Below are positions 6,968 through 33,700 of a stretch of 64,000 nucleotides of DNA, piece by piece. Both the position numbers and the translations under genes were made by a program. Where the stretch lies: NCBI GenBank assembly GCA_018812715.1, contig JAHJCT010000017.1, positions 204,019 through 268,018 on the forward strand. Direction: 5' to 3'. Origin of the DNA: Candidatus Micrarchaeota archaeon (lineage in GTDB: Archaea > Micrarchaeota > Micrarchaeia > Anstonellales > Bilamarchaeaceae). The notes beneath the pieces were generated by a model. The model did no database searches. It saw only the letters and a list, made by a program, of their open reading frames with translations, and was not told the DNA's origin. Position 1 is the stretch's first letter; each line of letters opens with the position of its first letter.

Positions 6968-8533
6968 TCATTCTATTTGCAATACTCTTCTGCGCCTTGT
7001 CCCTTCATCTTGTGGTTGCGCTTCTGGCACTGTGACGTTTGGTATGCTCCTTGCCCAATCCCCAACAGTGGAAGTATGGTGATTCATTCTCCACGTATAA
7101 ACAGAAATAGCAGAAAGTGTTCTCATATCTATTATTCCATTAACATGAAGATCTGTTCGTGGAGTTCCTAATATGCTGTTATATAATAAGTTAAGATCTC
7201 CATTGAGGCTGTCAAACCATTCTTCATCTGTTCTAGTTGCTGAGAAATTTATGAATGCCTGCACTGCCCTTGCTACTAATCTTCTATCCGTGTCTGATGT
7301 GGTACTTCTTAAGCGTGTCGCTTCTCTTCCAACAGTTGCATATTCATCATGACTTTGTACAAATGCTAAAAACACCTCATCTTCATGCAGGTAGTCATTG
7401 AATATTCTCATAAAAGCATCATATACATCAGTTCTCTCTAATTCAGTTAATGCACTTTCTAAGGAATCGTATCCTTCCGGAAGAGTGCGCATGAGTGTTA
7501 TTATTGCCTCTGGCCTTCCCTGTTGCACTCCTTGATATAATTCAGTACTAAGATTGGCCCAATGGCTTTCAGCAAATTGTTGCAGTGGGGTTTGTCGTAC
7601 TTCGACTGCTAATACTTCTGTAGCTTGCCATACATCAATACTATCCTGGCTTACACCAGTTCCTGTTTCCAAATACCATCTTCTCAAATATAATGCAGCG
7701 GCTGTAAGTGTATCTGCATCCATTGCTACAGTACGGTATGTTCTGAGACTTTGCTCATTTCCAATTCTTGTATGAATCTCTGGTAATTGATCTATCTCTT
7801 GATGATATCTTGCATAATTTTCACGTGCTGCTTCAAATTCAAGAAGATAATACCGGGTAAAAGCAAGTGCTGTGTTTACCAAATTAGCATCTGCATTTAT
7901 CGCAAGTGTTGGGGGTTCTCCTTGTTCTGTCATATATGCCTGAAGCGCAGCATAATTCCCTCCTTCTCTTCCAGCAACAGATGAAAGGAATAATCTGAAT
8001 CTTGGTATTTGATAAAATTCATTGAAAATTGTAACTGCTGCTCCTCTTCTGTTTTCATCTGTAGAAAGAAATTGCTGAATGCGATCTCTGTTAGTGTGCA
8101 AGGTATTTACAGCATTCAATGCATCTGTGCTTCCTCTTGCTCTTAATTGCATTTGAATCCAATCAGTTGAAATTGTTGGTATTGGAGGTTGTTCTTCTAC
8201 TGTTTCTTCTCTTCTTTCTCGTCTGGGCCTTCTCTCACGCCTTGGTGCAGGTTCTTCTACAGCTGGTTCTTCTACTACAGGCTGAGGGTGCAGTTCTCCA
8301 TAAATACGTGTAGCTATTGCCGCTACATTTAATCCATCAATAGCATCAAAATCCTGATCTGCACATCTTCCGCTTGCCCAGTTTTTAGCGCGTCTCAGTT
8401 CTCCTTGCAGATCTTCAACGCTCATTTGATCGTTTACAGTTACTCCTGTGTTATACCTTCTTGCCTCTCCTTCTCCACCTGTACAAACTATTACTATCGT
8501 ATTATTTCGAAGCGTTACTCTGGCATCAACCAT
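6968..8533 (-). CDS. Hypothetical 521-aa protein linked to the giant-protein cluster
   Basis: Its ATG shares a base (position 8533) with the stop of the 2854-aa gene. The N-terminus VTLRNNTIVIVCTGGEGEARRY loosely resembles the YGLTVSGEGE C-terminal motif of the giants. R/E/A/T-rich composition with a PRRERRPRRERREE linker. Confidence 0.6.
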   Translation of the reverse strand: MVDARVTLRNNTIVIVCTGGEGEARRYNTGVTVNDQMSVEDLQGELRRAKNWASGRCADQDFDAIDGLNVAAIATRIYGELHPQPVVEEPAVEEPAPRRERRPRRERREETVEEQPPIPTISTDWIQMQLRARGSTDALNAVNTLHTNRDRIQQFLSTDENRRGAAVTIFNEFYQIPRFRLFLSSVAGREGGNYAALQAYMTEQGEPPTLAINADANLVNTALAFTRYYLLEFEAARENYARYHQEIDQLPEIHTRIGNEQSLRTYRTVAMDADTLTAAALYLRRWYLETGTGVSQDSIDVWQATEVLAVEVRQTPLQQFAESHWANLSTELYQGVQQGRPEAIITLMRTLPEGYDSLESALTELERTDVYDAFMRIFNDYLHEDEVFLAFVQSHDEYATVGREATRLRSTTSDTDRRLVARAVQAFINFSATRTDEEWFDSLNGDLNLLYNSILGTPRTDLHVNGIIDMRTLSAISVYTWRMNHHTSTVGDWARSIPNVTVPEAQPQDEGTRRRRVLQIE

Positions 8534-11500
8534 TAACGTTCCCCTCTTCTGCTAACATACTGCATGATATGATTACGCAGGCCATTTCTTGCAGTCCTTC
8601 TATCAACTTCTACACTTAAACCTTCTCCTTCACCACTTACAGTAAGTCCATATCCTTCACGTAATTGCATGTCTCTATCTATGGTGCTAGTAAGTAATCT
8701 GTACATCTCTGCTTTGATATCTGCTCTTACAACATCTCTTGCTCTTTCTCTTGTTTCAGCATCTTCTGAATTTATTTCAGGACCATATGCATTTACCATT
8801 GCCTGTGCATCCTCTGTTAATGTTCCATCATCGTTTCTAGCTTCAATCATTCTGTCTATTGTTCCATCCAACAATGGTGTTAATGTACTTTCTTCATTTG
8901 CATAAAATCTCTGTGCTTCAGGTGATAAAGTTGCTGGAGGTGCATGAACTTCTTCAACATCAATCTGATCCTCTCTTCTGGGAGTCATTACTTCAAATCC
9001 AGGCCGTCTAACATATTGTGCTTCAAATTCTTCTCCAACCGGCTCCACTGTTTCTTCTCTTGTTACAGTTCCTCTGCTTCTTTCTCTTTCTTCCCTGGCT
9101 TGTTCTTCAGCAGGTGTTGCTCCATCCCACCAGCCGTTTGATCTGTACACTGTAGCCCTGCGGTCTAGATATTCGTATATTTCAGTGTATCTTCCAGGTC
9201 CTGGGACAGTGCTATGTTGCGAAGCATCTTCTATTATTTCTAAAACATGCCCGCGGATATTGTCTCTGTGATCTAGCAGCCATCTCACAAAACCTAATCT
9301 TTCTTCATCTGATCTTTCTGCAATAAATGTAACTAAGTGTGCATTCTCAGGATCAAACAATCTTGGTTCCATATATCCAAGAACTGCTGAACCTACAAAG
9401 CCGCGTTGTCTTGCTGCTTCAACTGCTTCTCCTGGAGTTTCACTTTCTAATATTAATGCTGCAAGCTCTTGCGGATTTCCATAGATTGCGTCTCCTCCAA
9501 TAACTCTATTCTCTTCTCCGTATCTAATATCCTCAATATTAAATGCATTGAATGCAAGCAAGGCTTCATTATTTTCTCTATATTGATTGAGCAGTTGTTC
9601 ATATGTATCTCTGAATCCAGGATCAAGTGATGCCCTGACATCAAGCAATCCAAGGAATGAATTTTGTCTTATTCCTGTAACTGTTCCATCTTCTTCTATT
9701 ACTTCAATGTAAAGATTCTGTGATCTCAAATGTGCTTCAAGTACCTGATAGATATCTCTTTCACTAGTAACCTGTTGCCTTAATTCTGTTATCCTTCCTT
9801 CGCTTGTAAGATCATTCATTATATTATCTAAATATACACTGGGTATGTGTCCTCCTTGTACTGCTTCCCATAAGTAGGCAAATACATCTGTGTTTGAAGT
9901 AAGGAAATCTACTCTTTGTCCGCCTTCTCTTGTATATCTTCCGCTTTCCGCCTCCCCTTCACTGATCAAACCAGTATCTACACAGAATGCATCTGCAACT
10001 GCATCCCTGAAATCTATCACAAGTCCTCTTTCTCTCCATTGTGGTATACGCAGATCAAATAAATCCGTAATATCTACTTCTTCTTTTCTTTCTTGCGAAA
10101 GAATTCCTTGCACATCATCAACAGTCAATCCCCATGGTTCAAGGATTGCTGCAAGCTCTGCCTCTCTTCTATCTTCTGCATCTCCTCTCCTCATATCACT
10201 CAATAGATCATTTATGTCATCTAATCTTCCGCCCATCTCTCTTCCGTCAGCAACTATCTCTCCAAGTCTTCTTGGTTCTATTAGTATGTCTGTTCTTTGA
10301 AGCAATTGATTAAGATCTTCTACATTTCCAGGTCTCCTATCTCTACCTCTTGGAAGAGCATTGGGCATGTGGAAGAAGAATCGCCTCCCTTCTTCAGTTG
10401 CAAGCCATTCCAAATCTTCATCACTGGCTCCGGCACAAAGATTTCCAAAGTCTCTTTCGCATAGCCTTCTTCCTTCTTCAACTGATCCGGCACTATTAAG
10501 TGAATTGTACCATGGCAATAGAACATTATCCCACGCGTAATTTCCAATCACATACCAGGCTATAGCCTGCGGTATTAAGTAAGGAGAATTCCTTAATCCT
10601 GCTCTTATCCTCCCTCCCGGAACTGCATTTCTTATGGAATTAACAAATCTTCTTGCTCCCCAATTAGTGAGTGGTTCCCAATTGTTGAGAAATCTAAGAA
10701 TTCTCCATCCAATATTTATTGCATCGTCCCTTAATGGTCTTGTATCTCTTGCAAATACATCTGCAGCAGTGCTTGCTTGGTCTAAAACTTGATTTATTCT
10801 TGGTCTTAATGCATTTATTGCTGAAAATTCTTGTGCAAATGCCGGGTCTTGACTAATATTTCTTACAAAACCTTCTAACGGAGTTCTCATTTCTCTTGGC
10901 ACAAACTGTGGTTCTGCTCCTTCTACAGCTCTGCCTTGTTCCAATACATTCAATATCTCGTCTACAGTTCTATTATTTTGCACTGCATCTCTGTAAATCT
11001 CTGCAGCTTCCCTTCCATATCTTTCCCTTACTGCTCTTTCAACTTCAGGACTTCTCAGAATCTCAGTTAACACATCATTAACATTTCCACCTTGGGAACT
11101 ACGCTCAAGAAGAGTACGCCTAATTACATTTGTTACTGGTTCATCAGCTATTGGAATTTCTCTTATTCTTCCTTCCACACTGTTTTGAACTCCAGCCAAT
11201 TCGCGAACAAGCATCTGAGGCGGAATTATGTCACTACCTTCTAATCTAGGCAATAATGATGCTCTTTCCAGCGGCGTGTATTCAATTCCAAGCAATTCCT
11301 GTGTTCTTAAAAGCGGTGCCAATTCACCCCGTTGTGCTTCAATTGCCCTTATCATCACTTCTACATCATTTGCAGAAAATCCTTCACGTGCTTGCACTGC
11401 CATATAATCTTCAGGACTTATTCCAGCATTTCTTGCCCCGCTTTCAATTGTTCTTCCTGTTCTATTTAATATATCTCTAAGTACTGGATCTGTTTCAGCT

Positions 11501-14500
11501 AATGTTTCAAGTTGTGCCCTTACATTTGGCCTTGAGTATATGCGTCTTAATAAATTCCAATAGCCACTAGTCTCCCCTCTTGCCGTTTGTGCTGTGTCGT
11601 ATAAAGATTTCATGATATCTGCTATTCTCTGAGGACTAGAATTCAACAGGTTTTCAAGTTCTACTGCCTCTGTTCTTGCTGTTTGTGCTTCTTGCTCTGC
11701 AACCCTTATCTCTTCTGGTCTTGCCCCTCCTTCTCTAAGTTCTTCTACTCTGACTTCAAGTTCAGTAGCTCTTGTGCGTGCCCTACTTATTTCTAATTGT
11801 GCCAATTCAGGATCTAATACCATATCCAAAGTATTTCTAACTCCTTCGCCTGTTGTACTAAGTACTTCTTCAGCTTCAGGAAGTTCGGCCCTTGCATTTC
11901 TCTCTACTCTATCGCTTCTCCAATTTTGCCAGCGCTCTCTTCCAAATCTATACATTCGTTCAAAGCGTCCCCATCTTACTTCTGGTATTGGCCGAACTGG
12001 TCCACCACCTCCACCCTGGCCCCCACCAACGGTTGTATCAACAGGACCTATTCCTCCTTGTTGCACTCCTGGTGGCCTTGCTCCTCCCTCTTCAGCCATT
12101 GCTCTTACTTCAGGCATCTGCCTTATCATCATTGGACCTTCGCCTTCAACAAGATGAGGCCTGCGTGCCATTTCACTTGCAACAACATCTTCTATGTAAT
12201 AGTTGTAATCATTCACTGCCATTGCAACAGCTTCAGGTTCAAACATTGCTTCTATTTGTGATCTTGCATTTTCCAAAGCACGTTGTGAAAATGGAGTTGC
12301 TTCTCCAGTTTCAAAGTAATGCCTTACACTTGGATTCCTGATAAGTCCATCTATTATTTCTGCAACTTCAGGATTTTCTGCCCTTATATTCTCTAATGTT
12401 TGTTGTGCTGCAGCTCTATGAACTACATTTTCTCTTGCTGTTGTTCCTTCAGGTGTTAGCAATCCCTCAAGCAGCCAATCCAATCTTCCTGGCTGCAATG
12501 TTCCTGTGCTTTCAACTTCTGTTACTGGTCTTCCGCCTCTTGGCCCTGGCGTTGGAGGTTCTGGGCCTCTGAATATCATATCAATTACACTTGTCATATT
12601 TCCTCGTGCAAGTGGTGTCATTTCTCCTGTTACTAGGGCCTCTGGAACATGCATAAAGCTTGTATTTCCAATGCTGCCCGTCTCCATAAACTGCATTATT
12701 CTTCCTTGTACTTCCTCAGGCAGTGTTCTCAACCGTGCCTGTGCACCATCCCTTACAGTCGGGTCTTCACTTCTCAACTCTCTCATGAATTCAAACATTT
12801 CTTCTGGGGTTCGAAGTCTTTGTGCTTCTCTAACTGAAGGAATTTCATTAGGTTCTATTTCAATTGGAACCTCTCGCGGTTCCGGTGCCCTTATCTCTTC
12901 AGCTACAAGCTCAGTTTCTGTTCTTGCTTCTGTTGTTCCTCTTACTGGTCTGGCTCTCATAGCTTGCCATCCACGTGACCCTGCCATATGTGCCCATGGG
13001 AAAGCGGCCATTGCAGTTAGGAAAATTCCCTCCCGCATATTCCCTTCTGAAAAGGCATCAACTGCATGATATCCCATATATCCTGAGAAACCAACTCCAA
13101 TTCCAATGTTTGTATAATTAAGGGCTCTTACCACTTGTGTCATTCTAGTAGCATATGCAGTTCCTTGTGCAAACTGTGCTTCTGTACGTAAAACGCCTGC
13201 AAGTCCTCCGATACCCATAGTTGCTATTATCCCACCAAACATCAACCACGATGTCCAACTTGCTTCTCCTTGTACCCGGTATTCTGTAACTATCTGATCA
13301 AATGCCATAGTTGCAAAGAGCGACCCACCAAAAAGTTGTCCTCCAGGTACGAGACACGCTACAACCCCAACAGCAGTTAGTCCAACTGTAGTCCAAAATT
13401 GGTGGTCTGCTACTCGTTCCTGCATTCGATCTATGATTGCATTAGCATCATCAAATCTTCCCATGCCAACAAGGGCATATACATTGCCTTGATCGACAGC
13501 ATACTCTGCAAACATCTGGCTTCCTGAATCTGCAGGAATTGCGAATATTGATGCTTCAACAATTCTTGCACCATTCAAATCCAACTGCATTCTCTCTTGT
13601 GATCCAGACCCTCCTCTACCAAAGAGAATATAATGCATCGAATCTGTTTGCATTTCTCTGTAAGCATCCCAATAAGATCTATCTGGTTCGCTTCTCATAA
13701 ATTCTGCAAAATCTTCTGGGAAAAATATTGCCTCTCCTAATCGTTCTGCACCTTCAAGGAAGTTTTCAATACCTGTAGCAGTTAAATTCATCGCACTTCT
13801 TCCTTCATATGATGCCATAGCAGTTATCCTATGATCTATAGCAGCTTCATATGCTTCTTCAGCTTCCTGGAACCTTCCCTCCAAAATAAGATTTTGAGCT
13901 CTTTGCAAATCAGTATTACAATCTCTTAAATTATCTTCTGCTAAACTAAATCTATCTCCACCCCCAATTCTTATCATTCTTAGATATTCATCGTTTACTT
14001 CTATCTGCTGTCCTATCTGTGAATAAGCCATGGCTGCCCTGCTTTCTCCTTGCACTAATTCGAGCAGATAACTCATCACAGTTCCGCCTCTTAGCCCCTC
14101 TCCATATATTGGCAGATCATCTGTAGTATATTCTATCCCATCCATCTGTGTAAGCAGAGCATCTACTTCGGTAGAAAGATATATCACTTGCCTTAATCTT
14201 CCCATCTCAAGGTCTGATACTGCTCCAAATGTCTCTGGATGCTGTTCAATATAATCTGCCATTAAAGAAAGGCCATTGCTTGTTGTAGTAAATGCGCCTA
14301 CATCATGGCCATAATCCCATGCTGTTTGCCAAGCTCTTTCTCCTGTTGTTCCTCCTCCGCACATGTTTATGACATAAGCTCGGAATGCTTCAGTAAGTGC
14401 ATCATTTCCTTGCCTAAGTATTACTTCAGCATCTACTACTGTACTTCGTCTATGCACTCTTGTAGCAATTAATGACAATCGGTTCCAATATGTTTCACTT

Positions 14501-17097
14501 GCTTGTTCATATTCTCTTAAATTTCCACTAAAAGCCGCTTCTCTAAGTTCTTCAAGATCACTTCTTAAGCTATGCAATGGATAATCTCTGGCTATTGTTA
14601 AATCGCGCTCCCCATGACTTCTTTCATAACCTCTTATCTGTTCAGCAGTAACATATGCTGGAAATGTTCCATCCTCATTTCTTTCACCGAGTGGAATTTG
14701 TCCGGCTTCTACACCTTCTGCTATCGGCTCTCTTCCCCAGTAAATACCTGTTAATCTGTTATAATCAGCAATAAGCATTTCTGTTTGTACGATTCTTCTT
14801 GTTCCTCTATCAAACTGTTGTGCAGCTGCATAATGCTCTTCATCTGTTCCTGCATGCATTTCCATTTCTATTGCTTCAAGCATTATCCTTCTGCCTCTTC
14901 TGTATCCATATGGCACTTCTTCAGTTCCTTCTCGAATCATGCGTTCATGAGTAAATAGTTCATATCTCCAGCCTTCCTCTCTTCCTCCTTCAGCTGCACC
15001 ATAATAATCTCTTATATATTGCAGCAATAGATTTGCTCCCCGATAATCTCCAGCTTCGACTCTTTCTCTTACAATTCCTAATGCTTCATTTATTGTTGTT
15101 CTCCCAACTCCTCTTCTTTGTGCAAATGTCTCCAATCTGTTTGCTTCTGCTTCTATGTAAACTATCTGCGCTAAGTTGAAGCTTTCCATGAAGGCACCAT
15201 CATCACCTGGTTCGCCTTGTGCCATAGCCTGCAATTGTGTCTCCATTCCACTTAGGTGTATTGCATTTTCATCCGTAATTCTGGTGACTCTTCCATTGCT
15301 TACTACTCCAAGCCTTTGCACAGAATCAACATACATTGCAAGAAGTGTAAGTACTCTTGCTGCTTCTTGTGCATTCCCTTGTCTTGCAAGTTCTTCTGCA
15401 CGTTCAAGTGTTTGATTTACTATCCCTATCTGGAAAGTCATTCTTCTTGAACTCCAGTTTTCAATCAGTTCTCTGAATTGATCTGTTTCTCCTCTAACCT
15501 GGTGGTAAATCATTCCTATATTGAACTGCTCACTGGCATCTTCTCCTGCCATTTCACTTTGAAGTGCTTGTTCTATTGTTTCGCGTCCTTCCCAATCCCC
15601 CCAGCGATGCCCTTCATTTCTGTCATAATAAAATGAAATCATGTAAAGTAATCTTCTTGCTCCTTCGAAATCACCAAGCTTGAATCTTTCATCTGCAATG
15701 GCTGCTGCATTTCTGATAAGTTCTCTTCTCTCTTGCCCTCTTCTTCCTGTAATTGCTTGGAACCCTTCAATATCTACAAGCATGTGTGCCATGTCCATTT
15801 CAGTTGAATACTGTGCAAGCATTGATGAAGTAGGGCTTCTTCCTTCAATTATTATATTATATATTGTCTGATAACTCGGCAGATAATCTACTGCATGCCT
15901 ATCTAATTGTCTTGCAGACCGTTCAAGCAATCCTAAAGAAATGGCAAGTGCTGCAAGATTTCTATCTCCTCTTTGCAGTGCATCAAGTGCCTGTTGACCA
16001 TACCATTCCGGACTTTCTTCTGTTACTCTTCCTGTTCCACGTAAACTAGTAGCAATCATAGTCAGGTTTGCATCTCTTTCTTCTTCGCTTAATGGCATCT
16101 CTCTTCCAATTGTCATGAAATAGCTGGTTGTAATTCTTTCAAATTCCAACTGACCAATTATTTGTCCTTGTTCAAGTCTTCTGATTATTTCATCTAGTTC
16201 ATGCCTGAGATTTTCCATTTGCTGTCTCATCTGTTCATTTGTCTGTTGTTCTATTGCAAGTGCTATCTCATCTCTCCATTGGCTGAAGACTGTTGTGTTT
16301 ATCTCAGTCCATTGGTCCTTTATTGTTCCTATATTAGCTTCAAAAGACCAAAGCGATTGTCTATCTTCATGTTCCTGTTCACTAGTATACCCAATCCTTT
16401 GCCTCCCCTGGTTTCCTCTCTCCACTATAAAACCAAAGAGTGCATTTCTTTCCATTTCTACAGCTGAATTGTCGATATTGTAAATAGGAATATTCTCAAC
16501 GTACAATCTCCCTGCTTTTAGTACTGCCTCTGCTCTGCCGTGATTTGTTGTTGCAATATCTAATACAGAAGCTTCCAGGCTATCAAAAATAGTTTCAAGT
16601 GCATCTTCTGATTCCACGCCAGGAATCTGAATATTTTCAGGCATGCCCCCCGTTAGCATATGTAATTCTATATCAAATACATCTCCGACTGTTCTGAGCA
16701 TTGCCCTTGATCTTGTTATCATGTGGAATGATGCAGCAATGTTTCCTTCTCCACCAGTTGTTCTTGCATCATTTAATATCTGCTGAACTAAATCGAGTTC
16801 ATCCGTATACCTTTCTCCAAGTATTGGCAGTGCAGTTACTCTTAATCTCACTTGTTCCAATGTTTCTTCTGTTCTTTCTACTTCTGAATTAATGTATTCA
16901 ATAGTTGCATCATCAGGCCTGACAGTTAAGGTTCGCGCATGATCCTGGAGTGCACTAATCTCTCCAAGCACTTCATCCAATCCCTGTTCTAATTCTCTTC
17001 TTTGTTCATCCATTGCTTCTATTCTTGTTGGAATGATTGCAATTGGTAATCGTGTAATCTCCTCCTCTTCAGGTCTTTCTATTGTTGTTCCTCCCAT
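8533..17097 (-). CDS. Giant membrane protein, 2854 aa. TPR-like N-terminal region, central block of 4-5 TM helices, repeat modules, Trp-rich module and a conserved C-terminal domain.
   Basis: Single uninterrupted ORF. TPR-like segments (GDFEGARRLLYMISFYY, GDYRGANLLLQYIRDYY). Hydrophobic helices around 12960-13390 (FWTTVGLTAVGVVACLVPGG, WLMFGGIIATMGIGGLAGVL, IFLTAMAAFPWAHMA). IEAQRGELAPLL matches the VEAQREHLAPLL repeat of the upstream giant. Trp-rich module 10480-10700. C-terminal YRLLTSTIDRDMQLREGYGLTVSGEGEGLSVEV is shared with the 1463-aa protein. Confidence 0.85.
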   Translation of the reverse strand: MGGTTIERPEEEEITRLPIAIIPTRIEAMDEQRRELEQGLDEVLGEISALQDHARTLTVRPDDATIEYINSEVERTEETLEQVRLRVTALPILGERYTDELDLVQQILNDARTTGGEGNIAASFHMITRSRAMLRTVGDVFDIELHMLTGGMPENIQIPGVESEDALETIFDSLEASVLDIATTNHGRAEAVLKAGRLYVENIPIYNIDNSAVEMERNALFGFIVERGNQGRQRIGYTSEQEHEDRQSLWSFEANIGTIKDQWTEINTTVFSQWRDEIALAIEQQTNEQMRQQMENLRHELDEIIRRLEQGQIIGQLEFERITTSYFMTIGREMPLSEEERDANLTMIATSLRGTGRVTEESPEWYGQQALDALQRGDRNLAALAISLGLLERSARQLDRHAVDYLPSYQTIYNIIIEGRSPTSSMLAQYSTEMDMAHMLVDIEGFQAITGRRGQERRELIRNAAAIADERFKLGDFEGARRLLYMISFYYDRNEGHRWGDWEGRETIEQALQSEMAGEDASEQFNIGMIYHQVRGETDQFRELIENWSSRRMTFQIGIVNQTLERAEELARQGNAQEAARVLTLLAMYVDSVQRLGVVSNGRVTRITDENAIHLSGMETQLQAMAQGEPGDDGAFMESFNLAQIVYIEAEANRLETFAQRRGVGRTTINEALGIVRERVEAGDYRGANLLLQYIRDYYGAAEGGREEGWRYELFTHERMIREGTEEVPYGYRRGRRIMLEAIEMEMHAGTDEEHYAAAQQFDRGTRRIVQTEMLIADYNRLTGIYWGREPIAEGVEAGQIPLGERNEDGTFPAYVTAEQIRGYERSHGERDLTIARDYPLHSLRSDLEELREAAFSGNLREYEQASETYWNRLSLIATRVHRRSTVVDAEVILRQGNDALTEAFRAYVINMCGGGTTGERAWQTAWDYGHDVGAFTTTSNGLSLMADYIEQHPETFGAVSDLEMGRLRQVIYLSTEVDALLTQMDGIEYTTDDLPIYGEGLRGGTVMSYLLELVQGESRAAMAYSQIGQQIEVNDEYLRMIRIGGGDRFSLAEDNLRDCNTDLQRAQNLILEGRFQEAEEAYEAAIDHRITAMASYEGRSAMNLTATGIENFLEGAERLGEAIFFPEDFAEFMRSEPDRSYWDAYREMQTDSMHYILFGRGGSGSQERMQLDLNGARIVEASIFAIPADSGSQMFAEYAVDQGNVYALVGMGRFDDANAIIDRMQERVADHQFWTTVGLTAVGVVACLVPGGQLFGGSLFATMAFDQIVTEYRVQGEASWTSWLMFGGIIATMGIGGLAGVLRTEAQFAQGTAYATRMTQVVRALNYTNIGIGVGFSGYMGYHAVDAFSEGNMREGIFLTAMAAFPWAHMAGSRGWQAMRARPVRGTTEARTETELVAEEIRAPEPREVPIEIEPNEIPSVREAQRLRTPEEMFEFMRELRSEDPTVRDGAQARLRTLPEEVQGRIMQFMETGSIGNTSFMHVPEALVTGEMTPLARGNMTSVIDMIFRGPEPPTPGPRGGRPVTEVESTGTLQPGRLDWLLEGLLTPEGTTARENVVHRAAAQQTLENIRAENPEVAEIIDGLIRNPSVRHYFETGEATPFSQRALENARSQIEAMFEPEAVAMAVNDYNYYIEDVVASEMARRPHLVEGEGPMMIRQMPEVRAMAEEGGARPPGVQQGGIGPVDTTVGGGQGGGGGPVRPIPEVRWGRFERMYRFGRERWQNWRSDRVERNARAELPEAEEVLSTTGEGVRNTLDMVLDPELAQLEISRARTRATELEVRVEELREGGARPEEIRVAEQEAQTARTEAVELENLLNSSPQRIADIMKSLYDTAQTARGETSGYWNLLRRIYSRPNVRAQLETLAETDPVLRDILNRTGRTIESGARNAGISPEDYMAVQAREGFSANDVEVMIRAIEAQRGELAPLLRTQELLGIEYTPLERASLLPRLEGSDIIPPQMLVRELAGVQNSVEGRIREIPIADEPVTNVIRRTLLERSSQGGNVNDVLTEILRSPEVERAVRERYGREAAEIYRDAVQNNRTVDEILNVLEQGRAVEGAEPQFVPREMRTPLEGFVRNISQDPAFAQEFSAINALRPRINQVLDQASTAADVFARDTRPLRDDAINIGWRILRFLNNWEPLTNWGARRFVNSIRNAVPGGRIRAGLRNSPYLIPQAIAWYVIGNYAWDNVLLPWYNSLNSAGSVEEGRRLCERDFGNLCAGASDEDLEWLATEEGRRFFFHMPNALPRGRDRRPGNVEDLNQLLQRTDILIEPRRLGEIVADGREMGGRLDDINDLLSDMRRGDAEDRREAELAAILEPWGLTVDDVQGILSQERKEEVDITDLFDLRIPQWRERGLVIDFRDAVADAFCVDTGLISEGEAESGRYTREGGQRVDFLTSNTDVFAYLWEAVQGGHIPSVYLDNIMNDLTSEGRITELRQQVTSERDIYQVLEAHLRSQNLYIEVIEEDGTVTGIRQNSFLGLLDVRASLDPGFRDTYEQLLNQYRENNEALLAFNAFNIEDIRYGEENRVIGGDAIYGNPQELAALILESETPGEAVEAARQRGFVGSAVLGYMEPRLFDPENAHLVTFIAERSDEERLGFVRWLLDHRDNIRGHVLEIIEDASQHSTVPGPGRYTEIYEYLDRRATVYRSNGWWDGATPAEEQAREERERSRGTVTREETVEPVGEEFEAQYVRRPGFEVMTPRREDQIDVEEVHAPPATLSPEAQRFYANEESTLTPLLDGTIDRMIEARNDDGTLTEDAQAMVNAYGPEINSEDAETRERARDVVRADIKAEMYRLLTSTIDRDMQLREGYGLTVSGEGEGLSVEVDRRTARNGLRNHIMQYVSRRGER

Positions 17098-17106
17098 TTT
17101 TTCACC

Positions 17107-17430
17107 TCAAGTATATTCCTTACACATAAGTACAAAATCCTGCAGCCTCTCAAGTCTCGCCTTTTCATTATCTTTTCCTTTCACTGCTTTTTTCTGCCAT
17201 TCAACCAGCTCATCATGGAATTTTCTTATTTTTTCTATCTGTGGCTCCATACTCCTGCTTTTTACCTTTGAAGCCTCCCATTTTGCAAGGAATTTTTCTA
17301 TTACAGTAATAGTATGATTTACCCTGTTTATTGTATTTTTTTCAACAGAAGCAGCATCAGTCTTAACAGGTATTTTCTTCTTGGAGATTTTTTTCTTTTT
17401 TGAAGATTTTTTCTTAGCCATCAGAAGCAC
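17107..17430 (-). CDS. Small lysine-rich protein (107 aa) immediately upstream of the 2854-aa gene
   Basis: Its ORF ends 9 nt before the giant's start codon. K-rich and AT-rich like the housekeeping genes, not like the giants. The N-terminus MAKKKSSKKKKISKKK suggests nucleic-acid or acidic-partner binding. No family recognised. Confidence 0.45.
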   Translation of the reverse strand: MLLMAKKKSSKKKKISKKKIPVKTDAASVEKNTINRVNHTITVIEKFLAKWEASKVKSRSMEPQIEKIRKFHDELVEWQKKAVKGKDNEKARLERLQDFVLMCKEYT

Positions 17431-17511: not shown

Positions 17512-20500
17512 TTATTCATTTTCTCTGCCTACAAAGCTCAGAGTGTGTCTCTCTATGCCTCTTCTGGCTCTTCCCATATCTGTTATTTGAACAGCGAACT
17601 CTTCGCCTTCACCACTTACAGTGAGTCCATAGTCAGTACGGTGCTGTACGTCCCTTCGTATATCACTTGTAAGAAGTCTATACCACTCTGCTCTTATTGC
17701 CATTTCAGTTTGTTCTCTGTTCCCTTCAAATGCACTTCTTAGCAATTGACCGTCTTCTCCTTCATCAGTGAAGAGCCTTTCCAGGGTTCCGTCCAACATG
17801 CTGTTAAAGTCATTTTCAATAGTATAGAACTGTTGAGCCTCAGCGTTCAATTCTGTACCACTTCTCTCAGTTCCAGTTCCTCTAAATCTTTCTACTTCAT
17901 TGATGTATCCTGTATCAACAGCCCACTGTACACGAACACCTTGTGGATCTGAGAATGGATTATAGTCAGATACATTTCCACCATCTGCTTTGTGCCTTTG
18001 CAGTTCTTCAACAAATTCTTCAAGACGGTATCTGTTGAGTCTGTATCGTGCACCTCTGGTATCGACAAAGCTTGTCAGGAGCTCTCTTATATCCTGGTTT
18101 GTTGGCGCAAGAAGAGTGTATGCCATGCTATCTGAAATATCAAATTCAGAAAGTTCTCTTCTTAACTCCCTTCTTGCATATTGTTCAGAGGTATCTTCAA
18201 CCCATCCATTTGTTCTTGCAGTTGCCATTGCTTCATTGAATGTTTCTTCTAACATTACATCAGTTACAGGAACACGTCTTGTTTGCAATGTTTGTCCTTC
18301 CCCAGCTCTTGCTTGTGTTTTTTCTTCCCAAAGAGTAACAAATGCTTCTCTATTTTCTGGTTTGAGGTACTCGGTATGCTCTCCCCTTTCAGCCACTAAT
18401 GGAAGCATAAGTCTTCCTACTCTATCTCTTCCTTGTGCAAAGACAAAATCCACTAATCCAAGATCTGCTATATTATAATTATCCATTACTCTTTCTTGTT
18501 GCTCAGATACGAGGAATCCTCTTTCTACCCATTGCCTTGTATGTTCATTCATATAGTCATAGTCAACTGTTGCCCTCGTTCCCTCTTGTGCCATTAAATA
18601 ATCAACAAATTCATTTGTCATATTCCTGTTGAGTTTAAGGCCATCGGTTATCACAGTATATTCTACATCGATTATACAACAGAACTGATTTCCTGATTCC
18701 CATTCATCTTCAATTGCTAGTGGTTCCCAGTTTTCTACATCATCCATACTTTCAATACCAAGTTCTCTGCATGAATTAGGTATTACTAATCCCGGTGTTG
18801 CTGGAGGCCTTTCAACTGCTTCTCCTGTTCCCTCGGCTACTTCATTAGTTCCTTCAGCTACCTCGCCAGTTCCTTCTGCATTTTCTTCTCTAGGCGGAGG
18901 TTGTGCTCTAGAGGTAGAACCTGCACTTGTTTCCTGAGAACAATTAGCTATGTCATCATCATCCAGTTCGTTTACATCTCTAACATGTTTCAATGTTCTT
19001 CTCTCTTGGAAGAATGTAAGAACACCTTCATTATCATGTTCAACTTGATTATCCCTTAGCCAGTCTAATCTTTCCTCACCTGTAACTCCATATGCAGTTG
19101 TGTAATAACTATCCTCTCTTTCTGCAAGTCGTTCTGGAATGTCGTAACTATCATTTATCATTCTCTTATTTGAGAGCTCACCTTGCATCGGAGACCACCA
19201 TTCCCAAGGTGCTCGGTCGAAGTGGTTTCCAAAATGATTAAAGCTCCAACGCCATGGCATCGCATTCCATGAGAATGGATTGTACCAATGACCTGTAGTT
19301 GATGTACCAATGCGATAGGTCCAAGGTTTGTACCATGCTCCGTTTGGTGTTGTTGTCATCCATTCATTTGGTGATGTGAACCATGCAACACCAAAAGATC
19401 CTATCAAGTATGCTTTGAGTGCTCCTTTCCAAAGTCCCCTCAACCATCTCGGGTAATGTTGGTATGTGTGAGCCTTTCCTGTAATTGGATTTCTACCAAC
19501 AACTTGCTTATTCCAATTTCGTTTCTTAAGATCATCAACTGTTTCTCCAAAGCCCCAACTTGAAAGTCTTCTAAGACGCCCACCTCTAAAATTACCTTGT
19601 GACTTTCCTATCCATGCTTCGCTTGTAAATAATCTCCAGAACCATTTATCTTTGAACTTTTGCCATTTTCCTACAGTTACTTTTGGAGACGGATCCCAGC
19701 TTTCTTTTGTAGCTTCCCAGATCGTTCTTGCTATAACAAATTGACCTTGAGGTATTTCACCTAAGTTTTCAGCAGTTCTTTTATGAAGCATTTCAACTGA
19801 TTTTTCAGCTGCTTTTCCTAATGGCTTGGAATACTTATTTTCTATTTTTACCAGCATCTCTTCTAATGAAGCACGAGGATACTTTCTAGTTTCTATTGCC
19901 TTTACAACTGTCAGCATTCTTTTTCTTACTTCATCAGGCAATTCTGCTCCTTCTACTTTTGTTCTTAATGCAGTTGCTTTTGTATCAAATGCTTCAAGCT
20001 TATATCTGAAAAGTTCTTCGCTTTCACCTTTACCTTTTCGTTCTTGTATCACTGCATCATATTCTGCTTTAGTAATACTTCTTGCTCTAAGCAGTTCATC
20101 CAATTGTTCTGCAGTTTTTGTTCTCAATCCTTGTTCTGTTGAAGGAATACCAAACAATTGCTGGCAGTCGTCCATACGATCAAGAACTTTCTTTGTATCT
20201 TTCATCAATTCACTGATAACTGGATTGCCTAGCCACTCTCCTGCTCTATTTGGAAGTTCATGAATTAATTCTGTACTCACTTCTCTGCAGTCAAGCATAT
20301 GCTTTTTGAAGTTTTCAGAGTATGTCCGTACTACATTTTCAAATCTGCCATTTTCAGTTCCTTGTATTCCACCTAATTCTGCTGAAAGTGTATCAAATAT
20401 TTCTTTTGCTTGAGTATACTCGTCCTCTATTCTCGCCCCCCTAGCAGACAAACTCAGTCCACGGGTATTAAATTCACTAATTCGCTGTCTTGCAATTACT

Positions 20501-21903
20501 AATTCTTGTTCTGCAGTATCCTTCTCTTCAGTAGCTTTTCTTTCTGCATCCTCAATCTGTTTTTGTGTTGCTTTTGCCTTTCCTTCTGCAACAAGCTGTT
20601 TTAGTTTTACAACTTTATCATACTGTTCTGTTTTTTCTACAACAGTTGCTTCGGCTCGTTCAACCAGTCTCTCTGCATCTGCCCTTTCGTTTCTAAATTC
20701 TGAAATTTCGTCATCTATTGCATCTACTCTTGCTGCACTTTCTTCCATGACGCTTTCAGCAGCAGCTCTCCGTACCATCATGTCTTCAACAGTTTGTCGT
20801 TGGCTTGGTCTGCATGGTCCAAATCCTTCAACATCAACAAAATGACCTGTTCCTGGAATACCTAGCCCTTCAACTGTCTCATTTGTAGGTGTTAAAAGAA
20901 TTGCACGAACGAATTGCCTGAAATTATCTGCAGCCATATCTATTGCTATAGATGTTCTTGATTCAAGATAAGCATCCACATAACTTCCATCAAGTACACG
21001 ACGATTAGTTTCTTGAGTATTCTCCGAGTCCATGCTTCTGGTCCCAGAAAGTTGCTTTAAAACACTACCTATGAATTCTCCTTCTTTTCCTGGGCTGAGT
21101 CTTTGTGCGACATTTTCAAGAAATCTAAAGAATGCGTCTGGAGGTAACGCTACTCCTTCTGGCCATGTTTCATGAGTCCACAATGATTCATATAATTTAT
21201 CTCCCCTTTCATCTCTTACACAATTTCCTTGTTCATCTTCTTGCTCAATCGGATTCCCCTTATCATCTAATTTAAATCTAGATCCGATCATTTGCGAATA
21301 AATAATATCAATTCTATCAGCATCAAAATCTTCGACTCTTCCTTCACTTAACTCTTGAGCAAGTCTTTGCCTTACGGCATACATTCTTTCTGCATACGCA
21401 GTATCAAGTTCTTCAAGCGGTGTCGGCACCGTCGGTTTCTTCAACCCATCAATAAATTCTTTTCTGCATACAATCTCTCTTATAAGCATATCAAAGCCAG
21501 AACTTGTCCTGCCCTGTCCTCTTCGTATTGCATCTACCAATTCTAATGTAAATTTAGTCAAATACTCTGCATTTGCTGTATCAGCACCGCTTTGCGGGGT
21601 TCCTCCGGCACCATGCCGTGTATCTTTATCTTGCCCTCGTTCTCCTCTCAGTTCTTTTAATCTTTCTTCTTTAGCAAATTCAATTCTTGCGTCTTTATCT
21701 GCTCTTTTTCGAGCTTTATGATCTTTTCTTAATTCAGGACTTAATGCAGCCCCCAGAACGGGCACTCTCTCTGCCATATATTTGTAACTCTTTGCAGAGC
21801 GACTTTCTCCACCTCTTGCCCAATCAAATACTCTTTGCCTTATACCAGCTTTCTCAGCCTGTTTATCTCTTCCCTGAGCCCTATCTATAACACTACCCGT
21901 CAT
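17512..21903 (-). CDS. Giant protein, 1463 aa, paralogous to the 2854-aa protein. Coiled-coil N-terminal half, Trp-rich module and a conserved C-terminal domain.
   Basis: Uninterrupted ORF. Trp-rich module 19190-19680 (WFWRLFTSEAW...GGRLRRLSSWGFG...YLIGSFGVAWF...PWEWW) aligns with the 2854-aa segment WRILRFLNNWEPLTNWGARRF...GGRIRAGLRNS...YVIGNYAWDN. The last ~100 aa (AEAQQFY...WYRLLTSDIRRDVQHRTDYGLTVSGEGEEFAVQI) align with the 2854-aa C-terminus. TATA-like TTTACTATTTAAT and GGAGG lie upstream of the ATG. Confidence 0.85.
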   Translation of the reverse strand: MTGSVIDRAQGRDKQAEKAGIRQRVFDWARGGESRSAKSYKYMAERVPVLGAALSPELRKDHKARKRADKDARIEFAKEERLKELRGERGQDKDTRHGAGGTPQSGADTANAEYLTKFTLELVDAIRRGQGRTSSGFDMLIREIVCRKEFIDGLKKPTVPTPLEELDTAYAERMYAVRQRLAQELSEGRVEDFDADRIDIIYSQMIGSRFKLDDKGNPIEQEDEQGNCVRDERGDKLYESLWTHETWPEGVALPPDAFFRFLENVAQRLSPGKEGEFIGSVLKQLSGTRSMDSENTQETNRRVLDGSYVDAYLESRTSIAIDMAADNFRQFVRAILLTPTNETVEGLGIPGTGHFVDVEGFGPCRPSQRQTVEDMMVRRAAAESVMEESAARVDAIDDEISEFRNERADAERLVERAEATVVEKTEQYDKVVKLKQLVAEGKAKATQKQIEDAERKATEEKDTAEQELVIARQRISEFNTRGLSLSARGARIEDEYTQAKEIFDTLSAELGGIQGTENGRFENVVRTYSENFKKHMLDCREVSTELIHELPNRAGEWLGNPVISELMKDTKKVLDRMDDCQQLFGIPSTEQGLRTKTAEQLDELLRARSITKAEYDAVIQERKGKGESEELFRYKLEAFDTKATALRTKVEGAELPDEVRKRMLTVVKAIETRKYPRASLEEMLVKIENKYSKPLGKAAEKSVEMLHKRTAENLGEIPQGQFVIARTIWEATKESWDPSPKVTVGKWQKFKDKWFWRLFTSEAWIGKSQGNFRGGRLRRLSSWGFGETVDDLKKRNWNKQVVGRNPITGKAHTYQHYPRWLRGLWKGALKAYLIGSFGVAWFTSPNEWMTTTPNGAWYKPWTYRIGTSTTGHWYNPFSWNAMPWRWSFNHFGNHFDRAPWEWWSPMQGELSNKRMINDSYDIPERLAEREDSYYTTAYGVTGEERLDWLRDNQVEHDNEGVLTFFQERRTLKHVRDVNELDDDDIANCSQETSAGSTSRAQPPPREENAEGTGEVAEGTNEVAEGTGEAVERPPATPGLVIPNSCRELGIESMDDVENWEPLAIEDEWESGNQFCCIIDVEYTVITDGLKLNRNMTNEFVDYLMAQEGTRATVDYDYMNEHTRQWVERGFLVSEQQERVMDNYNIADLGLVDFVFAQGRDRVGRLMLPLVAERGEHTEYLKPENREAFVTLWEEKTQARAGEGQTLQTRRVPVTDVMLEETFNEAMATARTNGWVEDTSEQYARRELRRELSEFDISDSMAYTLLAPTNQDIRELLTSFVDTRGARYRLNRYRLEEFVEELQRHKADGGNVSDYNPFSDPQGVRVQWAVDTGYINEVERFRGTGTERSGTELNAEAQQFYTIENDFNSMLDGTLERLFTDEGEDGQLLRSAFEGNREQTEMAIRAEWYRLLTSDIRRDVQHRTDYGLTVSGEGEEFAVQITDMGRARRGIERHTLSFVGRENE

Positions 21904-21990: not shown

Positions 21991-22428
21991 TTATAATCTT
22001 TCCTTAACTAGCTCAACGAATTTCTTTGCATTTTCTAATGCCTTTTCTGCTTCTTCTTTTCCTACACTATCTGATTCTCCATATACGACGTCATGCCGTC
22101 TTACTCGATACCGATTAAATGTATTTGCTAATCCGATCGACTCTGCTGGAAAGACTGCTGCACAGAATTGAACTACCGCGAGATGATGGGCCTCTGATAC
22201 TGGCATATATCCTTTATACGTCATCAAAGCCCTACCAGCAGATAGCATAGCATTATACGCTATTGCCAGTGCCCAATCATAATTCTTATTTTTCAAATTA
22301 TCTGATGCTACCCTCAGGTCTCTTTCTGCCATCAATAGTATCTCTTTAGCTTTTTCTCTATCGCTTTCCACTTTTCTTACTAAATCCTTCTTTAACAATT
22401 CTGCTAAATTCATCCTTCTCACCAACAA
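21991..22428 (-). CDS. HEPN-domain protein (toxin-like partner of the upstream nucleotidyltransferase)
   Basis: Rx4HxxxY motif (RYRVRRHDVVYG) near the C-terminus of a small helical protein. It overlaps the 3' end of the upstream minimal-nucleotidyltransferase gene. Confidence 0.65.
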   Translation of the reverse strand: MLVRRMNLAELLKKDLVRKVESDREKAKEILLMAERDLRVASDNLKNKNYDWALAIAYNAMLSAGRALMTYKGYMPVSEAHHLAVVQFCAAVFPAESIGLANTFNRYRVRRHDVVYGESDSVGKEEAEKALENAKKFVELVKERL

Positions 22429-22966
22429 GCCAAATGATTTTTTTCTTTAAAATATTAGTCAAAAATGAACCTTTCTTTTTTATTTTTTCTTCGAAATCTT
22501 TCTCACTCCATAAAATGAAATTTATTGCTTTTTCATGTTCTTTTTGTATTTCAAATATTCTATTTGCAAGAGTTTCATCATTCACATCTCCAATAACTAG
22601 GATATCTATATCACTATGTTTTTTCTCCTGTTCTCTGGCGCTACTGCCAAAAATAAAGGCATATTTTATTCTACCAGTTGCTTGCAAAACACTCTGTAAT
22701 TTGAAAATTACGCCCTCTGTTTTTTGGTAAAGTTTTTTTAGATCATGTAAAAACGGACATGCTTTGTTTAAATTGAATGCGAGCTGATTCCCTCTTTTTT
22801 CTTTTAGTAATATGTTTAACTCTGTCAATATCTCAAGTTCTCGTTTTGCTTCATAAGGTGAAACTCCAGCTCTTCTTGCAATTTCTCTAAGATGAAGCCC
22901 GTCTTCAAATAATACAATCCCAAGAACTTTTACTTCAGCCTTTGAACGCAATAATCTCTCTAACAT
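22358..22966 (-). CDS. Minimal nucleotidyltransferase (MNT) with N-terminal winged-HTH, paired with the HEPN protein
   Basis: GSSAREQEKKHSDIDILVIGD matches the GS...D.D nucleotidyltransferase signature. The N-terminal LHLREIARRAGVSPYEAKRELEIL is HTH-like. HEPN/MNT pairs are typical toxin-antitoxin or defence modules. Confidence 0.7.
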   Translation of the reverse strand: MLERLLRSKAEVKVLGIVLFEDGLHLREIARRAGVSPYEAKRELEILTELNILLKEKRGNQLAFNLNKACPFLHDLKKLYQKTEGVIFKLQSVLQATGRIKYAFIFGSSAREQEKKHSDIDILVIGDVNDETLANRIFEIQKEHEKAINFILWSEKDFEEKIKKKGSFLTNILKKKIIWLVGEKDEFSRIVKEGFSKKSGKR

Positions 22967-30796: not shown

Positions 30797-33700
30797 ATGT
30801 CATCTATACGATGCGCTATGAGTAGATCGTTGTTATTACTGGTTCTAAGTGTATTATTGCTCTCAAGTTTTGCTTTTGCTGCAACTCTTGAAGTTACTAC
30901 AGGCACAAGTTGTGTTGGTTCTCCTGATGGAACATTCACAACGATCCAGGCTGCAATAAATAACGCATCTACTGGTGATGTAGTAATTGTGTGTGATGGC
31001 ACGTATACAGAAAATGTTGAAGTGAACACATCGATAAACCTATCAGGTGAAACTCCTGATGTTACTGTTGTAGCTTTCAATGATACATTACCTGCAATTA
31101 CTACTTATGCCAGCAATGTTAACATTACTAATTTTACTGTTACTGGTGCAGATGGCATTGGTGATTATTCATGCGGATTATTAGTAGGCCGAGTATTAAC
31201 TGGCAAATTTCCTGATACTGAAAATGTTACTGTCTATAATGTAATAGCAGAAGATAATGATAATGGATTTTGTGTTTATGATGATACTGTTTCTTTGGTT
31301 GGTCTTGTAAATGTAACAGCAGATGGAAATGATATCGGCATTTTTCTAACATCATTGTCTACTACTTATGGTCCAAATTATGTGTTTGTAATTAATTCTA
31401 CCATGACTGACAACGCAGTTGGATTAAAGCTCTATAGAACTAATTATACATTTGTATATAACAACACATTTTATGCCAACAATCGTGATGCGGGCCATTT
31501 CGATATTTCAGGTGGATTTGGCGTATGGTCACAATCGCATGTAAGAAATCTTGATTTCATGTATAATAATATCTCTGAGAATGATGCTGGTTTTCTTGCT
31601 GGCTGTGATTGGCCTTGTATAACTCTTGGAGAACACCTGGCTGATGCAAGAATAGCTTTCAATAATTTCACTGATAATGTAATGTTGTCACTTGTAATGG
31701 ATCAGGATCATATTGATCCGTCTTCTCCTATAAATGTCACTGGAAATCGTTTTACTGGCGATACATTATTCCATTTTGTTACAGATGATATGTACAATCT
31801 TACTGTAGCTGATAATTATTTCAGCGATGCTGTAGCCTGTATTGGTTTTGGCTTTACCTCAGGACCGGTAGATATTTTTTCGAACTACATAACTGATTGC
31901 CAGGTTGGAATGGCTTTCTTAGAGCTTGAAGAAAATACATTGTTTGTGTATGACAATGAACTTGTTAACAATTACTTCAATTTTGGTGTTCTTTCAGCCT
32001 TTGGAAGCGGATATATCCAGAATATATCTACTAACAATACAGTTGATGGCAAGCCAATCTATTACTTTGTCAATGGGACCACTGGAGATGGAAATACTAA
32101 TTTCAATCCTGTTCCTGCAGATGCCGGATATGTGGCTTTAATTCTTACAAATAATTCAAGAGTTGAAAATCTCTTATTAGAACATAATATTAACGGGTTA
32201 GTTGCTCTCGAGTCAGTCAATGTCACTGTTGATAATGTAAGCATGGTGACTAATTTTTGGGGGGCATTCCTGGGAACAGTTAATTCTACTTATAGTAATG
32301 TAGAAATTAGCGACTGTAATAATCCTGTTATCACCCCATACCTGTCAACATATCTTGGTTATTTCATGTGCGGTTTGATTACAGCAGCATTCAACAATAC
32401 GTACAATAATTTTTCAATCTATGACCAGGAGGAGTGTTATCTTCTTGCAATGAATGCAACTGGATATCAAGGTTGGGCCCCTGGTTGGGGAGATACGATC
32501 TACGCAAACAACTTCACCATCGGTTATACTGAAACCACTGGTCTTATCAATTACAGATACTTTGAAATTCACGGCGGCGGATCAAGTACAATGAACCTCA
32601 CATGGCTTGTCCCAAAAGATCTTTCATTATTTAATGCAACAGTTTTACTAGATGACTTTATTGTCTTGATAAACGACTCTGATCCTGCAGTTGAACCTTA
32701 TTTCGAAAACCCGGCGAATGTTACATTATTGGGGGCTGGCTGTCCTTTGACATATTACAATGTAACTGGTTTCCCAACAACTGAAGCAGCCATACTCACA
32801 GCCGCAACAGAATTTACTCCAAATATCATCTCAGCTTGTAATGGCGGGCTAACAACCTTTGAAGTTCCTGGATTTACTGGCTATTTTGTTGCTGGACCAG
32901 AAGATGATGAAGATGATGGGGAGAATCAGATATCATTAGATTATGAAAGACTGGAATGTCCAGAAAATGGAGTTTTATTAACTGCAACTCGTGGCAATAC
33001 GGTTCTTTCTAATGTTGAATTTAGAGTTTTATTCAATAGTTTATTCTATGATCTTATTCCATCTGCACCTGGAGAGTATCAACTTATGCTAACTGCAGAA
33101 GGGGATTATGATATTACTGCAAGAAAGAGCAGTTACAACGATGACAGCGTTTCATTTACTTTTGAACTCTGTGAAGTAGATGAAACACATTTAGCGTGTG
33201 TGAATTCTGCATGTGTTAGAGTGAGTGGTGCTGGTGAAAACCTCTGTTCCTCAAGTGCAGATTGTGAAGAAACCCCAGTATACGAATGCTATTCAGATGG
33301 CGATTGCGATGATGCATACTTCTGTGATATTCCAGCAGGACAAATCGGAGGAACATGCGAACCAGTAACTGGCGAATGCGGCTATCCACAAAATCATACC
33401 TGGGTGCAATATGAATGTGGCAATGAAGTGGGATGTCAGCCATGCCCAGAAGGAGAAGTTTGCGTAAATCATGTATGTGCTGAAAGATTACTTACTGGTC
33501 CTGAAACCGGCTTTGTAGGAGACAATGTAACACTCAATGGAAAAGAAAACGGTGGGCCGTGTGCACTTTGTGATGTTGTCATACTTAATCCTGTGGGCGA
33601 AACCCTCTACGGCAAAACAAATACTAATGGTGATCTTAATCTTCCGTTAACTATGAAAGGAAATTATTCCATTGGTCTTCTTGCTCCAGATGGTGCAATC

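Follow-up and report, generated by a model that had tools for sequence, protein, structure and literature searches.

A predicted C-terminal domain common to two otherwise dissimilar large proteins of a Micrarchaeota operon

We analysed a DNA stretch of 64,000 nucleotides from Candidatus Micrarchaeota archaeon (GenBank assembly GCA_018812715.1, contig JAHJCT010000017.1, positions 204,019 to 268,018), which is called the window below, and concentrated on two very large proteins, A and B, that are encoded on its minus strand and end in the same type of C-terminal domain (CTD). Protein A is registered at NCBI as a hypothetical protein (KKB44_03070, Candidatus Micrarchaeota archaeon), and the open reading frame at its locus encodes 1463 amino acids (aa), which is the size given in a preliminary description of this DNA. 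A gene identical to that of A is present in the Logan assembly of run SRR2540949, and the accession of the run is mentioned in work on deep subsurface water at Aspo (PMC5364579). The genes of the two proteins and their CTDs, the latter delimited with a hidden Markov model (HMM) and with BLAST programs, are located as follows.

17512 to 21903, minus strand: open reading frame of protein A, 1463 aa
17515 to 17862, minus strand: CTD of protein A, residues 1348-1463 (HMM envelope 1348-1462; similarity to B by BLASTP from residue 1352)
8533 to 17097, minus strand: protein B, 2854 aa, with 6 Lys (0.2%) and 10.3% Arg, ending in a CTD
8536 to 8952, minus strand: CTD of protein B, residues 2716-2854 (found by HMM, BLASTP, and tblastn)

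The two copies of the domain in the window

The preliminary description had proposed that positions 17512-17811 hold a second copy of the C-terminal domain of the protein ending at 8533, and both BLASTP and the HMM bear this out. The C-termini of A and B are identical at 53 of 131 aligned residues (40%, E 2e-17 by BLASTP), and the similarity of the two proteins is confined to their last 115-135 residues or so. A tblastn search over the whole 64 kb detected exactly two copies of the CTD, those of A and B, and when further weak copies were sought by HMM within A, B, and two other large proteins of the same operon, C and D, none were found. We also built by hand a degenerate DNA motif, the core of which is E-x-[YF]-R-h-h-T-S, twelve residues, and G-h-x-h-x-G-x-G; in the window it matches at the two CTD sites only, with 0 matches expected from shuffles. 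As for the boundaries, the location previously assigned to the copy in A was right, but its extent of 100 codons is short by about 17 codons on the N-terminal side of the domain. The peptide quoted as the end of the protein, ...WYRLLTSDIRRDVQHRTDYGLTVSGEGEEFAVQITDMGRARRGIERHTL, is indeed present at the C-terminus of A, but the protein does not stop at ...HTL, after which eight further residues, SFVGRENE, precede the stop codon.

DNA identity between the two copies is 54%, and the same codon is used at 28 of the 53 identical residues. Because of these values the similarity is taken as old and held by selection on the protein, and recent gene conversion between the copies of A and B is ruled out by the same two figures. 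The CTD of A contains 13 Arg and no Lys, and that of B contains 17 Arg and a single Lys (K2795), which lies in the motif I-K-A-E-x-Y-R.

The domain family and its predicted fold

Following the alignment and HMM approach suggested in the preliminary description, a profile was constructed from the two window copies, and an exhaustive search of 1.84 billion representative proteins was made with it. Forty proteins matched at E<=1e-3, 23 of them at E<=1e-10, and the domain is thereby known from about 38 proteins besides A and B; one of the 40, the Lys-rich repeat protein P0038, looks spurious. In complete proteins the match ends 0-43 residues before the C-terminus, and the tails beyond it are rich in Arg. 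Each long carrier is a whole-length homologue of either A (A-type, about 1100-1770 aa) or B (B-type, about 2350-3260 aa). When an alignment of 16 A-type sequences and one of 7 B-type sequences were compared profile to profile, the CTD was the only part detected (probability 99.4%, E 9e-22). Nearly all carriers have one CTD, and two are present in P0003/L014 and P0004; the doubled domains were observed either as one internal and one terminal copy or in tandem (L014, 1153-3492, which is P0003-like, and P0004). Identity between the CTDs of A-type and B-type carriers is 35-45%, and that within one carrier class is 21-51%. Since the similarity between classes is about the same as that within a class, it fits a common constraint on both, and the domain is conserved across genomes of 38% to 67% guanine-plus-cytosine (GC) content.

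The degenerate motif, which catches only about 30% of the known family members, was also used for scanning 185,579 species genomes. Eleven stretches were obtained, five of them confirmed by the HMM and six being chance matches, and all five confirmed loci belong to metagenome-assembled genomes of Micrarchaeota (Ca. Bilamarchaeum, two Micrarchaeia, and one Micrarchaeota). Word-indexed homologue searches with the CTD alone and with full-length A returned the query itself only, and such a search with a profile of 30 CTD sequences returned only the fragment P0006. No match to these 30 sequences was found in Pfam even at E<=1, nor was any match to the CTD found in NCBIfam, PHROGs, PADLOC, or the sequences of the PDB. 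Full-text literature searches turned up no account of these proteins, nor one of lysine-free proteins in DPANN archaea.

For the alignment of 30 CTD sequences, AlphaFold2 predicted a structure with a mean predicted local distance difference test (pLDDT) score of 90.6 and a predicted template modelling (pTM) score of 0.81. The predicted fold has five helices, a beta-hairpin, and a last helix of 20 residues, and the hairpin is formed by the motif G-L-T-V-S-G-E-G-x-x-h-x-V. Polar residues conserved in the CTD alignment are R74, T77, S78, D83, R87, R112, and H118. A separate AlphaFold2 model of the last 734 residues of A, constructed with a 13-sequence alignment, has the same secondary-structure elements in the CTD, and the segment directly N-terminal to the domain has a pLDDT below 50 in this model, as a flexible linker; the corresponding position is rich in Pro, Ala, and Gln in orthologues. 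Foldseek searches with both models against the PDB and with the CTD model against BFVD gave nothing below E 0.39. Weak matches of the CTD were to CzrA, SqrR, SmtB, CadC, and Roquin ROQ domains. The ArsR/SmtB-like ones among them are not significant (E 1-6, template modelling score 0.17-0.26, root-mean-square deviation 11-17 A), and no superposable alpha1-alpha4/beta-hairpin/alpha5 arrangement of the ArsR/SmtB winged helix was found.

On the strength of the sequence comparisons and the predicted structure, we regard the CTD as a real autonomous domain of about 115 aa, representing an unannotated family that is so far limited to Micrarchaeota (DPANN). The interpretation in the preliminary description, a conserved C-terminal domain in two copies, is thus supported.

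The operon and its lysine content

The genes are tightly packed on the minus strand in the order A, s107, B, D, a small RelE-like toxin pair, and C. Features of the operon other than those listed above are as follows.

17107 to 17430, minus strand: s107, 107 aa, helical, 22% Lys, between the upstream CTD gene and B
6968 to 8533, minus strand: protein D, 521 aa, 1 Lys, its start overlapping the stop of B, without CTD
2 to 6349, minus strand: protein C, more than 2116 aa, 5 Lys, running past the left edge of the window
19375 to 19449, minus strand: predicted membrane helix of protein A, residues 819-843 (helix H90-114 of the 734-aa AlphaFold2 model)
12982 to 13407, minus strand: hydrophobic helix cluster of protein B, residues about 1231-1372 (from a hydropathy scan and reading of the sequence), with two strongly hydrophobic segments and about two weaker ones

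The order s107-B-D-C, examined by tblastn, is kept in the Micrarchaeota loci L006, L007, L009/L010, L011, and L013. Orthologues of D are located downstream of B in L006, L007, and L009, and those of C come next after D in L006 and L007. A CTD-bearing gene ends immediately upstream of s107 in L009/L010, L011, L013, and L014, and at this position the window, L011, and L014 all have an A-type carrier. The s107 protein, on which a poly-Lys N-terminal tail was observed, shows 50-64% identity in the same four loci, across Micrarchaeota of 38% to 67% GC, and no family match was found for it in Pfam, NCBIfam, PHROGs, PADLOC, or PDB sequences. In STL-MIC1 (L009 plus L010; JAXLQI010000002.1, 8001-24000), two CTDs lie about 9 kb apart, like those of the window. 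In place of an A-type protein, STL-MIC1 has an additional B-type paralogue as the upstream carrier (over 2049 aa, 0.1% Lys), and the CTDs of this paralogue and of the downstream B are 87% identical. Judged from this synteny, CTD protein-s107-B(CTD)-D-C is a conserved Micrarchaeota operon.

Pfam, NCBIfam, PHROGs, and PADLOC detected no domain in the four large proteins A, B, C, and D, nor did Pfam in nine homologues, and PDB sequence searches with A, B, the s107 profile, and the CTD profile were negative. Among the CTD carriers there is no C- or D-like protein, and D and the part of C included in the window have no CTD.

Protein A is composed of a Lys-rich N-terminal part of about 818 aa, a Trp-rich segment, the predicted membrane helix, a Lys-poor part, and the CTD. 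Sixty-two Lys are found in residues 1-818 versus seven in residues 844-1463 (620 aa; P about 1e-13), and the switch coincides with the Trp-rich segment containing the predicted helix. The same pattern, Lys-rich in the N-terminal and Lys-poor in the C-terminal part, is found in the A-type orthologues P0008, P0009, P0014, P0018, P0021, and P0029. A orthologues keep a moderately hydrophobic segment at the position of the predicted helix. Because the Kyte-Doolittle score of the helix in A is below 1.0, its assignment as a membrane helix is tentative. Four Cys in the Lys-poor part after the helix (residues 988, 1045, 1075, and 1076; 18675-18941, minus strand) are invariant or nearly invariant among 13 A-type proteins and may form disulfides or a metal site. 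The Trp-rich stretch, in which Arg is also abundant, covers residues 752-905 or so (19189-19650, minus strand) with 8-11 Trp per 100 aa; this enrichment is seen again in most A-type orthologues, and the stretch may be a membrane-interface region.

In the other large proteins Lys is almost entirely absent. B, C, and D together contain 12 Lys in 5,492 residues (0.2%) and 10.0% Arg, versus 9.8% Lys and 4.7% Arg in ordinary proteins of the window, and the binomial probability of such a low Lys count at the 9.8% background is about 4e-222. Lys-free runs extend over 1356 aa in B, at least 1171 aa in C, and 471 aa (90% of the protein) in D, and three of the five Lys of C fall in its first 32 residues. 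A has a Lys-free run of 158 aa (residues 1306-1463), which includes the CTD; its N-terminal half and s107 are not purged of Lys. AAA and AAG are found in frame at 1.5 and 0.7 per 1000 codons versus 23-62 out of frame. Since these triplets are abundant out of frame and nearly absent in frame, selection acts on the residue, not on base composition. A GC or mutational bias behind the loss of Lys is ruled out by the 38% GC of the window, by the commonness of out-of-frame AAA/AAG, and by the GC content at third codon positions of the Lys-poor genes (0.23-0.25) and their choice of Arg, Glu, and Gln codons, which are as in neighbouring genes. It was also considered whether Lys codons are avoided because of an effect on mRNA or tRNA, such as resistance to the RelE-like toxin of the operon; this was rejected, since the mRNA of A has 62 Lys codons in its first half.

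Other B-type proteins share this composition. The orthologues P0011, P0012, P0013, P0015, P0020, and P0027 and those of L006, L007, L009, and L011 have 0.1-0.4% Lys, and only two alignment columns retain Lys in most of the Lys-free B-type proteins, namely K2338 of an 'ERK' motif and K2795 of the CTD. K2338 (10084-10086, minus strand) lies in E-R-K followed by D-I-T, and Lys is present there in 10 of 13 sequences; this residue is a candidate for a functional, modified, or cross-linked lysine. The B orthologue of L013 (Ga0180438_10007776, 1275-10538) is collinear with B at 36-39% identity over the full length and contains 198 Lys (6.4%); at 51 of these positions, B of the window has Arg. In P0007 and P0033 the Lys content is 5-7%. 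Because these three B orthologues keep Lys, its exclusion is a property of particular lineages within the family. In the three genomes in which both are visible, B and the upstream CTD protein have the same Lys status. Since the purge is limited to B, C, D, and the part of A beyond the predicted membrane helix, these may have one compartment or exposure in common, in which the CTD would work.

The operon is accompanied by two small gene pairs. Between D and C, a RelE-like toxin (PHROG 1213, E 3.6e-5) and an upstream open reading frame of 74 aa, which is probably its antitoxin, are inserted (6422-6688 and 6698-6922, minus strand). Directly upstream of A, a HEPN-domain protein and a minimal nucleotidyltransferase resemble an MNT/HEPN toxin-antitoxin pair (21991-22428 and 22358-22966, minus strand). 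The remaining genes of the window are archaeal housekeeping genes, such as those for eIF6, L31e, S19e, prefoldin, FtsY, fibrillarin, and Cdc48. An integrated virus or foreign island was considered and is ruled out by the native codon usage, the housekeeping flanks, the synteny across Micrarchaeota, and the lack of PHROG hits. Two beta-helix/NosD-type proteins of 1021 and 1189 aa (30797-33862, plus strand; 56459-60028, minus strand) are strongly acidic, with Lys and Arg at 1.0-1.8% each, unlike the Arg-rich giants. The signal recognition particle RNA at 36296-36550 (minus strand) has Bacteria_large_SRP as its best Rfam model (65 bits; gathering threshold 60), though the genome is archaeal.

Possible roles of the domain

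By analogy, the CTD most resembles, in its logic, dockerin or other terminal modules that large exoproteins have in common. In both cases a small conserved C-terminal module stands behind a flexible, Pro-rich linker on otherwise unrelated large proteins, which in the present case are presumably extracytoplasmic, and the role proposed below, the docking of carriers into one complex, is also alike. Dockerin is a duplicated Ca-binding loop-helix motif, whereas the CTD has no relation to it in sequence or fold, is found in two carrier families and not dozens, and occurs in an archaeon; no cohesin-like partner was identified, and Dockerin_1 gave no Pfam match on A, B, or the 30 CTD sequences even at E<=1. 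The C-terminal domain of the type IX secretion system of Bacteroidota occupies the same terminal position. It is a beta-sandwich of about 80-100 aa read by known machinery, which is not known from archaea, while the fold predicted here is mainly helical and has no match in Pfam or NCBIfam. PGF-CTERM/archaeosortase signals likewise are a conserved element ending large surface proteins. They consist of a short motif, a hydrophobic helix, and a basic tail, whereas the CTD is a soluble helical fold of about 115 aa; in the last 100 residues of A and B, a basic tail was found with no hydrophobic segment and no NCBIfam match. Very large DPANN proteins presumed to be at the cell surface or host interface are also represented by the SPEARE proteins of Ca. 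Nanohaloarchaeum antarcticus, which, as attributed to Hamm et al. in 2019, reportedly carry serine-protease, adhesion, and restriction-endonuclease domains. Searches of A, B, C, and D with Pfam, NCBIfam, PHROGs, and PADLOC detected none of these, and the proteins are unrelated to SPEARE in sequence. The layout is the reverse of that of polymorphic toxins, in which a variable toxin at the C-terminus follows a conserved N-terminal region for trafficking and an immunity gene lies adjacent, the C-terminus here being conserved and the upstream parts of A and B unrelated, and no toxin family was matched.

We tentatively favour a reading of the CTD as a tethered module for docking or assembly, with which A-type and B-type proteins would pair or bind a common partner. 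Since the two carriers are always co-encoded, the simplest model is CTD-CTD pairing or one common partner, for which s107, D, and C would be candidates, and the restriction to two co-encoded carriers points to a specific pairing role rather than to a general sorting or anchoring signal. Docking would join membrane-anchored A and B into one complex on the extracytoplasmic side, that is, the side of the membrane marked by Lys depletion and the conserved Cys and most simply the cell exterior, and the symbiont may use this complex in its cell envelope or for contact with its host. Several points weigh against this proposal. The predicted membrane helix of A is hydrophobic only to a weak degree, and B and D have no recognisable signal peptide, so that their export is assumed. 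In addition, the conserved polar residues of the CTD are as compatible with a site for a small ligand or a glycan as with an interface between proteins, and because the exclusion of Lys is not family-wide, Lys status is not essential to CTD function.

The CTD could instead be an anchor or adhesin tip that binds a ligand, namely a non-protein component of the archaeal envelope itself or of the host surface, such as an S-layer glycan or a lipid head group, with a role like that of SLH or carbohydrate-binding modules on bacterial exoproteins. The flexible Pro/Ala-rich linker at the distal end of the extracytoplasmic region and the cluster of conserved Arg, His, Thr, and Ser, suited to anionic ligands, are consistent with such an anchor, as is the occasional tandem duplication, which is common for anchoring modules. 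We nevertheless think it somewhat unlikely, since the CTD is limited to two specific co-encoded proteins and not found on many exoproteins, the other large surface proteins of the window (beta-helix/NosD) are without it, and there is no similarity to known binding modules.

The position of the domain could also be explained by export. The CTD would then be a C-terminal recognition domain read by a dedicated pathway that moves the giants out, and s107, which is probably cytoplasmic because it is Lys-rich, would be a chaperone or adaptor binding the CTD in the cytoplasm. That the CTD is C-terminal in every complete protein and followed by Arg-rich tails is in line with this, and so is the small, helical, Lys-rich s107 invariably found between two CTD genes; moreover, B has no N-terminal signal peptide and yet is as Lys-free as post-membrane A. 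However, the internal membrane anchor of A could move its C-terminal part by itself, making a C-terminal signal superfluous, and D and C are just as Lys-free without a CTD. There is also no secretion ATPase or translocon gene in the window, where the neighbours are housekeeping genes, and a folded domain of 115 aa at 35-50% conservation exceeds what most export signals need, so we consider this role unlikely.

It is very improbable that the shared tail is a relic of common ancestry or of an old fusion, a structural cap without modular function. The ancient divergence of the window copies at the nucleotide level would agree with this, but the CTD has kept 35-50% identity in genomes of 38% to 67% GC, whereas A and B are otherwise without detectable relationship, a disordered linker separates it from the remainder, it has been duplicated independently, and it holds one of the two Lys-retaining columns in Lys-free B proteins. 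An ArsR/SmtB-type winged-helix domain binding nucleic acids is hardly credible: the order of elements in the CTD (helices, beta-hairpin, last helix) and the weak Foldseek matches recall that family, but the matches are not significant, the CTD follows a predicted membrane helix in the Lys-poor, Cys-conserving part of A, and no helix-turn-helix family was matched.

As for the composition of the giants, lysine deserts and the lysine-poor A chains of AB toxins, the latter reportedly described by Hazes and Read in 1997, are alike in having long Lys-free stretches with Arg kept, which are region-specific and under selection. The scale and setting differ here, with about 5,500 residues over three adjacent genes of an archaeal symbiont and products that are likely extracytoplasmic. 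By definition (PMC10665810, Szulc et al., 2023), a lysine desert is an uninterrupted Lys-free region that is 150 aa or longer or makes up at least 50% of the protein, and the runs of A, B, C, and D (158, 1356, at least 1171, and 471 aa) all fall within this definition. The known cases have been connected with tagging by ubiquitin or Pup and come from eukaryotes, from Actinobacteria, and from the phages or toxins of these. By analogy, the operon could encode a host-penetrating or host-exposed apparatus of a parasitic archaeon, in which B, C, D, and the outer part of A were purged of Lys to escape a Lys-directed attack in or on the host, although we give this little credence. One candidate attack would be ubiquitin-like (SAMP/Urm1) tagging followed by proteasomal degradation, in which case the giants would correspond, in an archaeon, to lysine-poor AB toxins and to the lysine deserts in proteins of mycobacteriophages. 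The CTD would couple membrane-anchored A to B, and the Lys-keeping L013, P0007, and P0033 would represent lineages with hosts in which this attack is absent.

In host-dependent DPANN archaea, the proteins responsible for contact are almost wholly uncharacterised, and most of their largest genes are unannotated. The present analysis provides a defined domain family with a confident predicted fold and no analogue in the PDB or BFVD, together with a conserved five-gene operon as a search target for co-cultures of cultivated Micrarchaeota. It also provides an easily measured signature, 12 Lys over about 5,500 coding residues against about 10% in ordinary proteins. Since orthologues with normal Lys exist, the family is a natural comparison for finding what selects against this residue, the candidates being a host tagging system, chemical damage, specific proteases, and membrane interaction. 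Should the exclusion reflect evasion of Lys-directed tagging by the host, archaeal symbioses would thereby have their first example of this.

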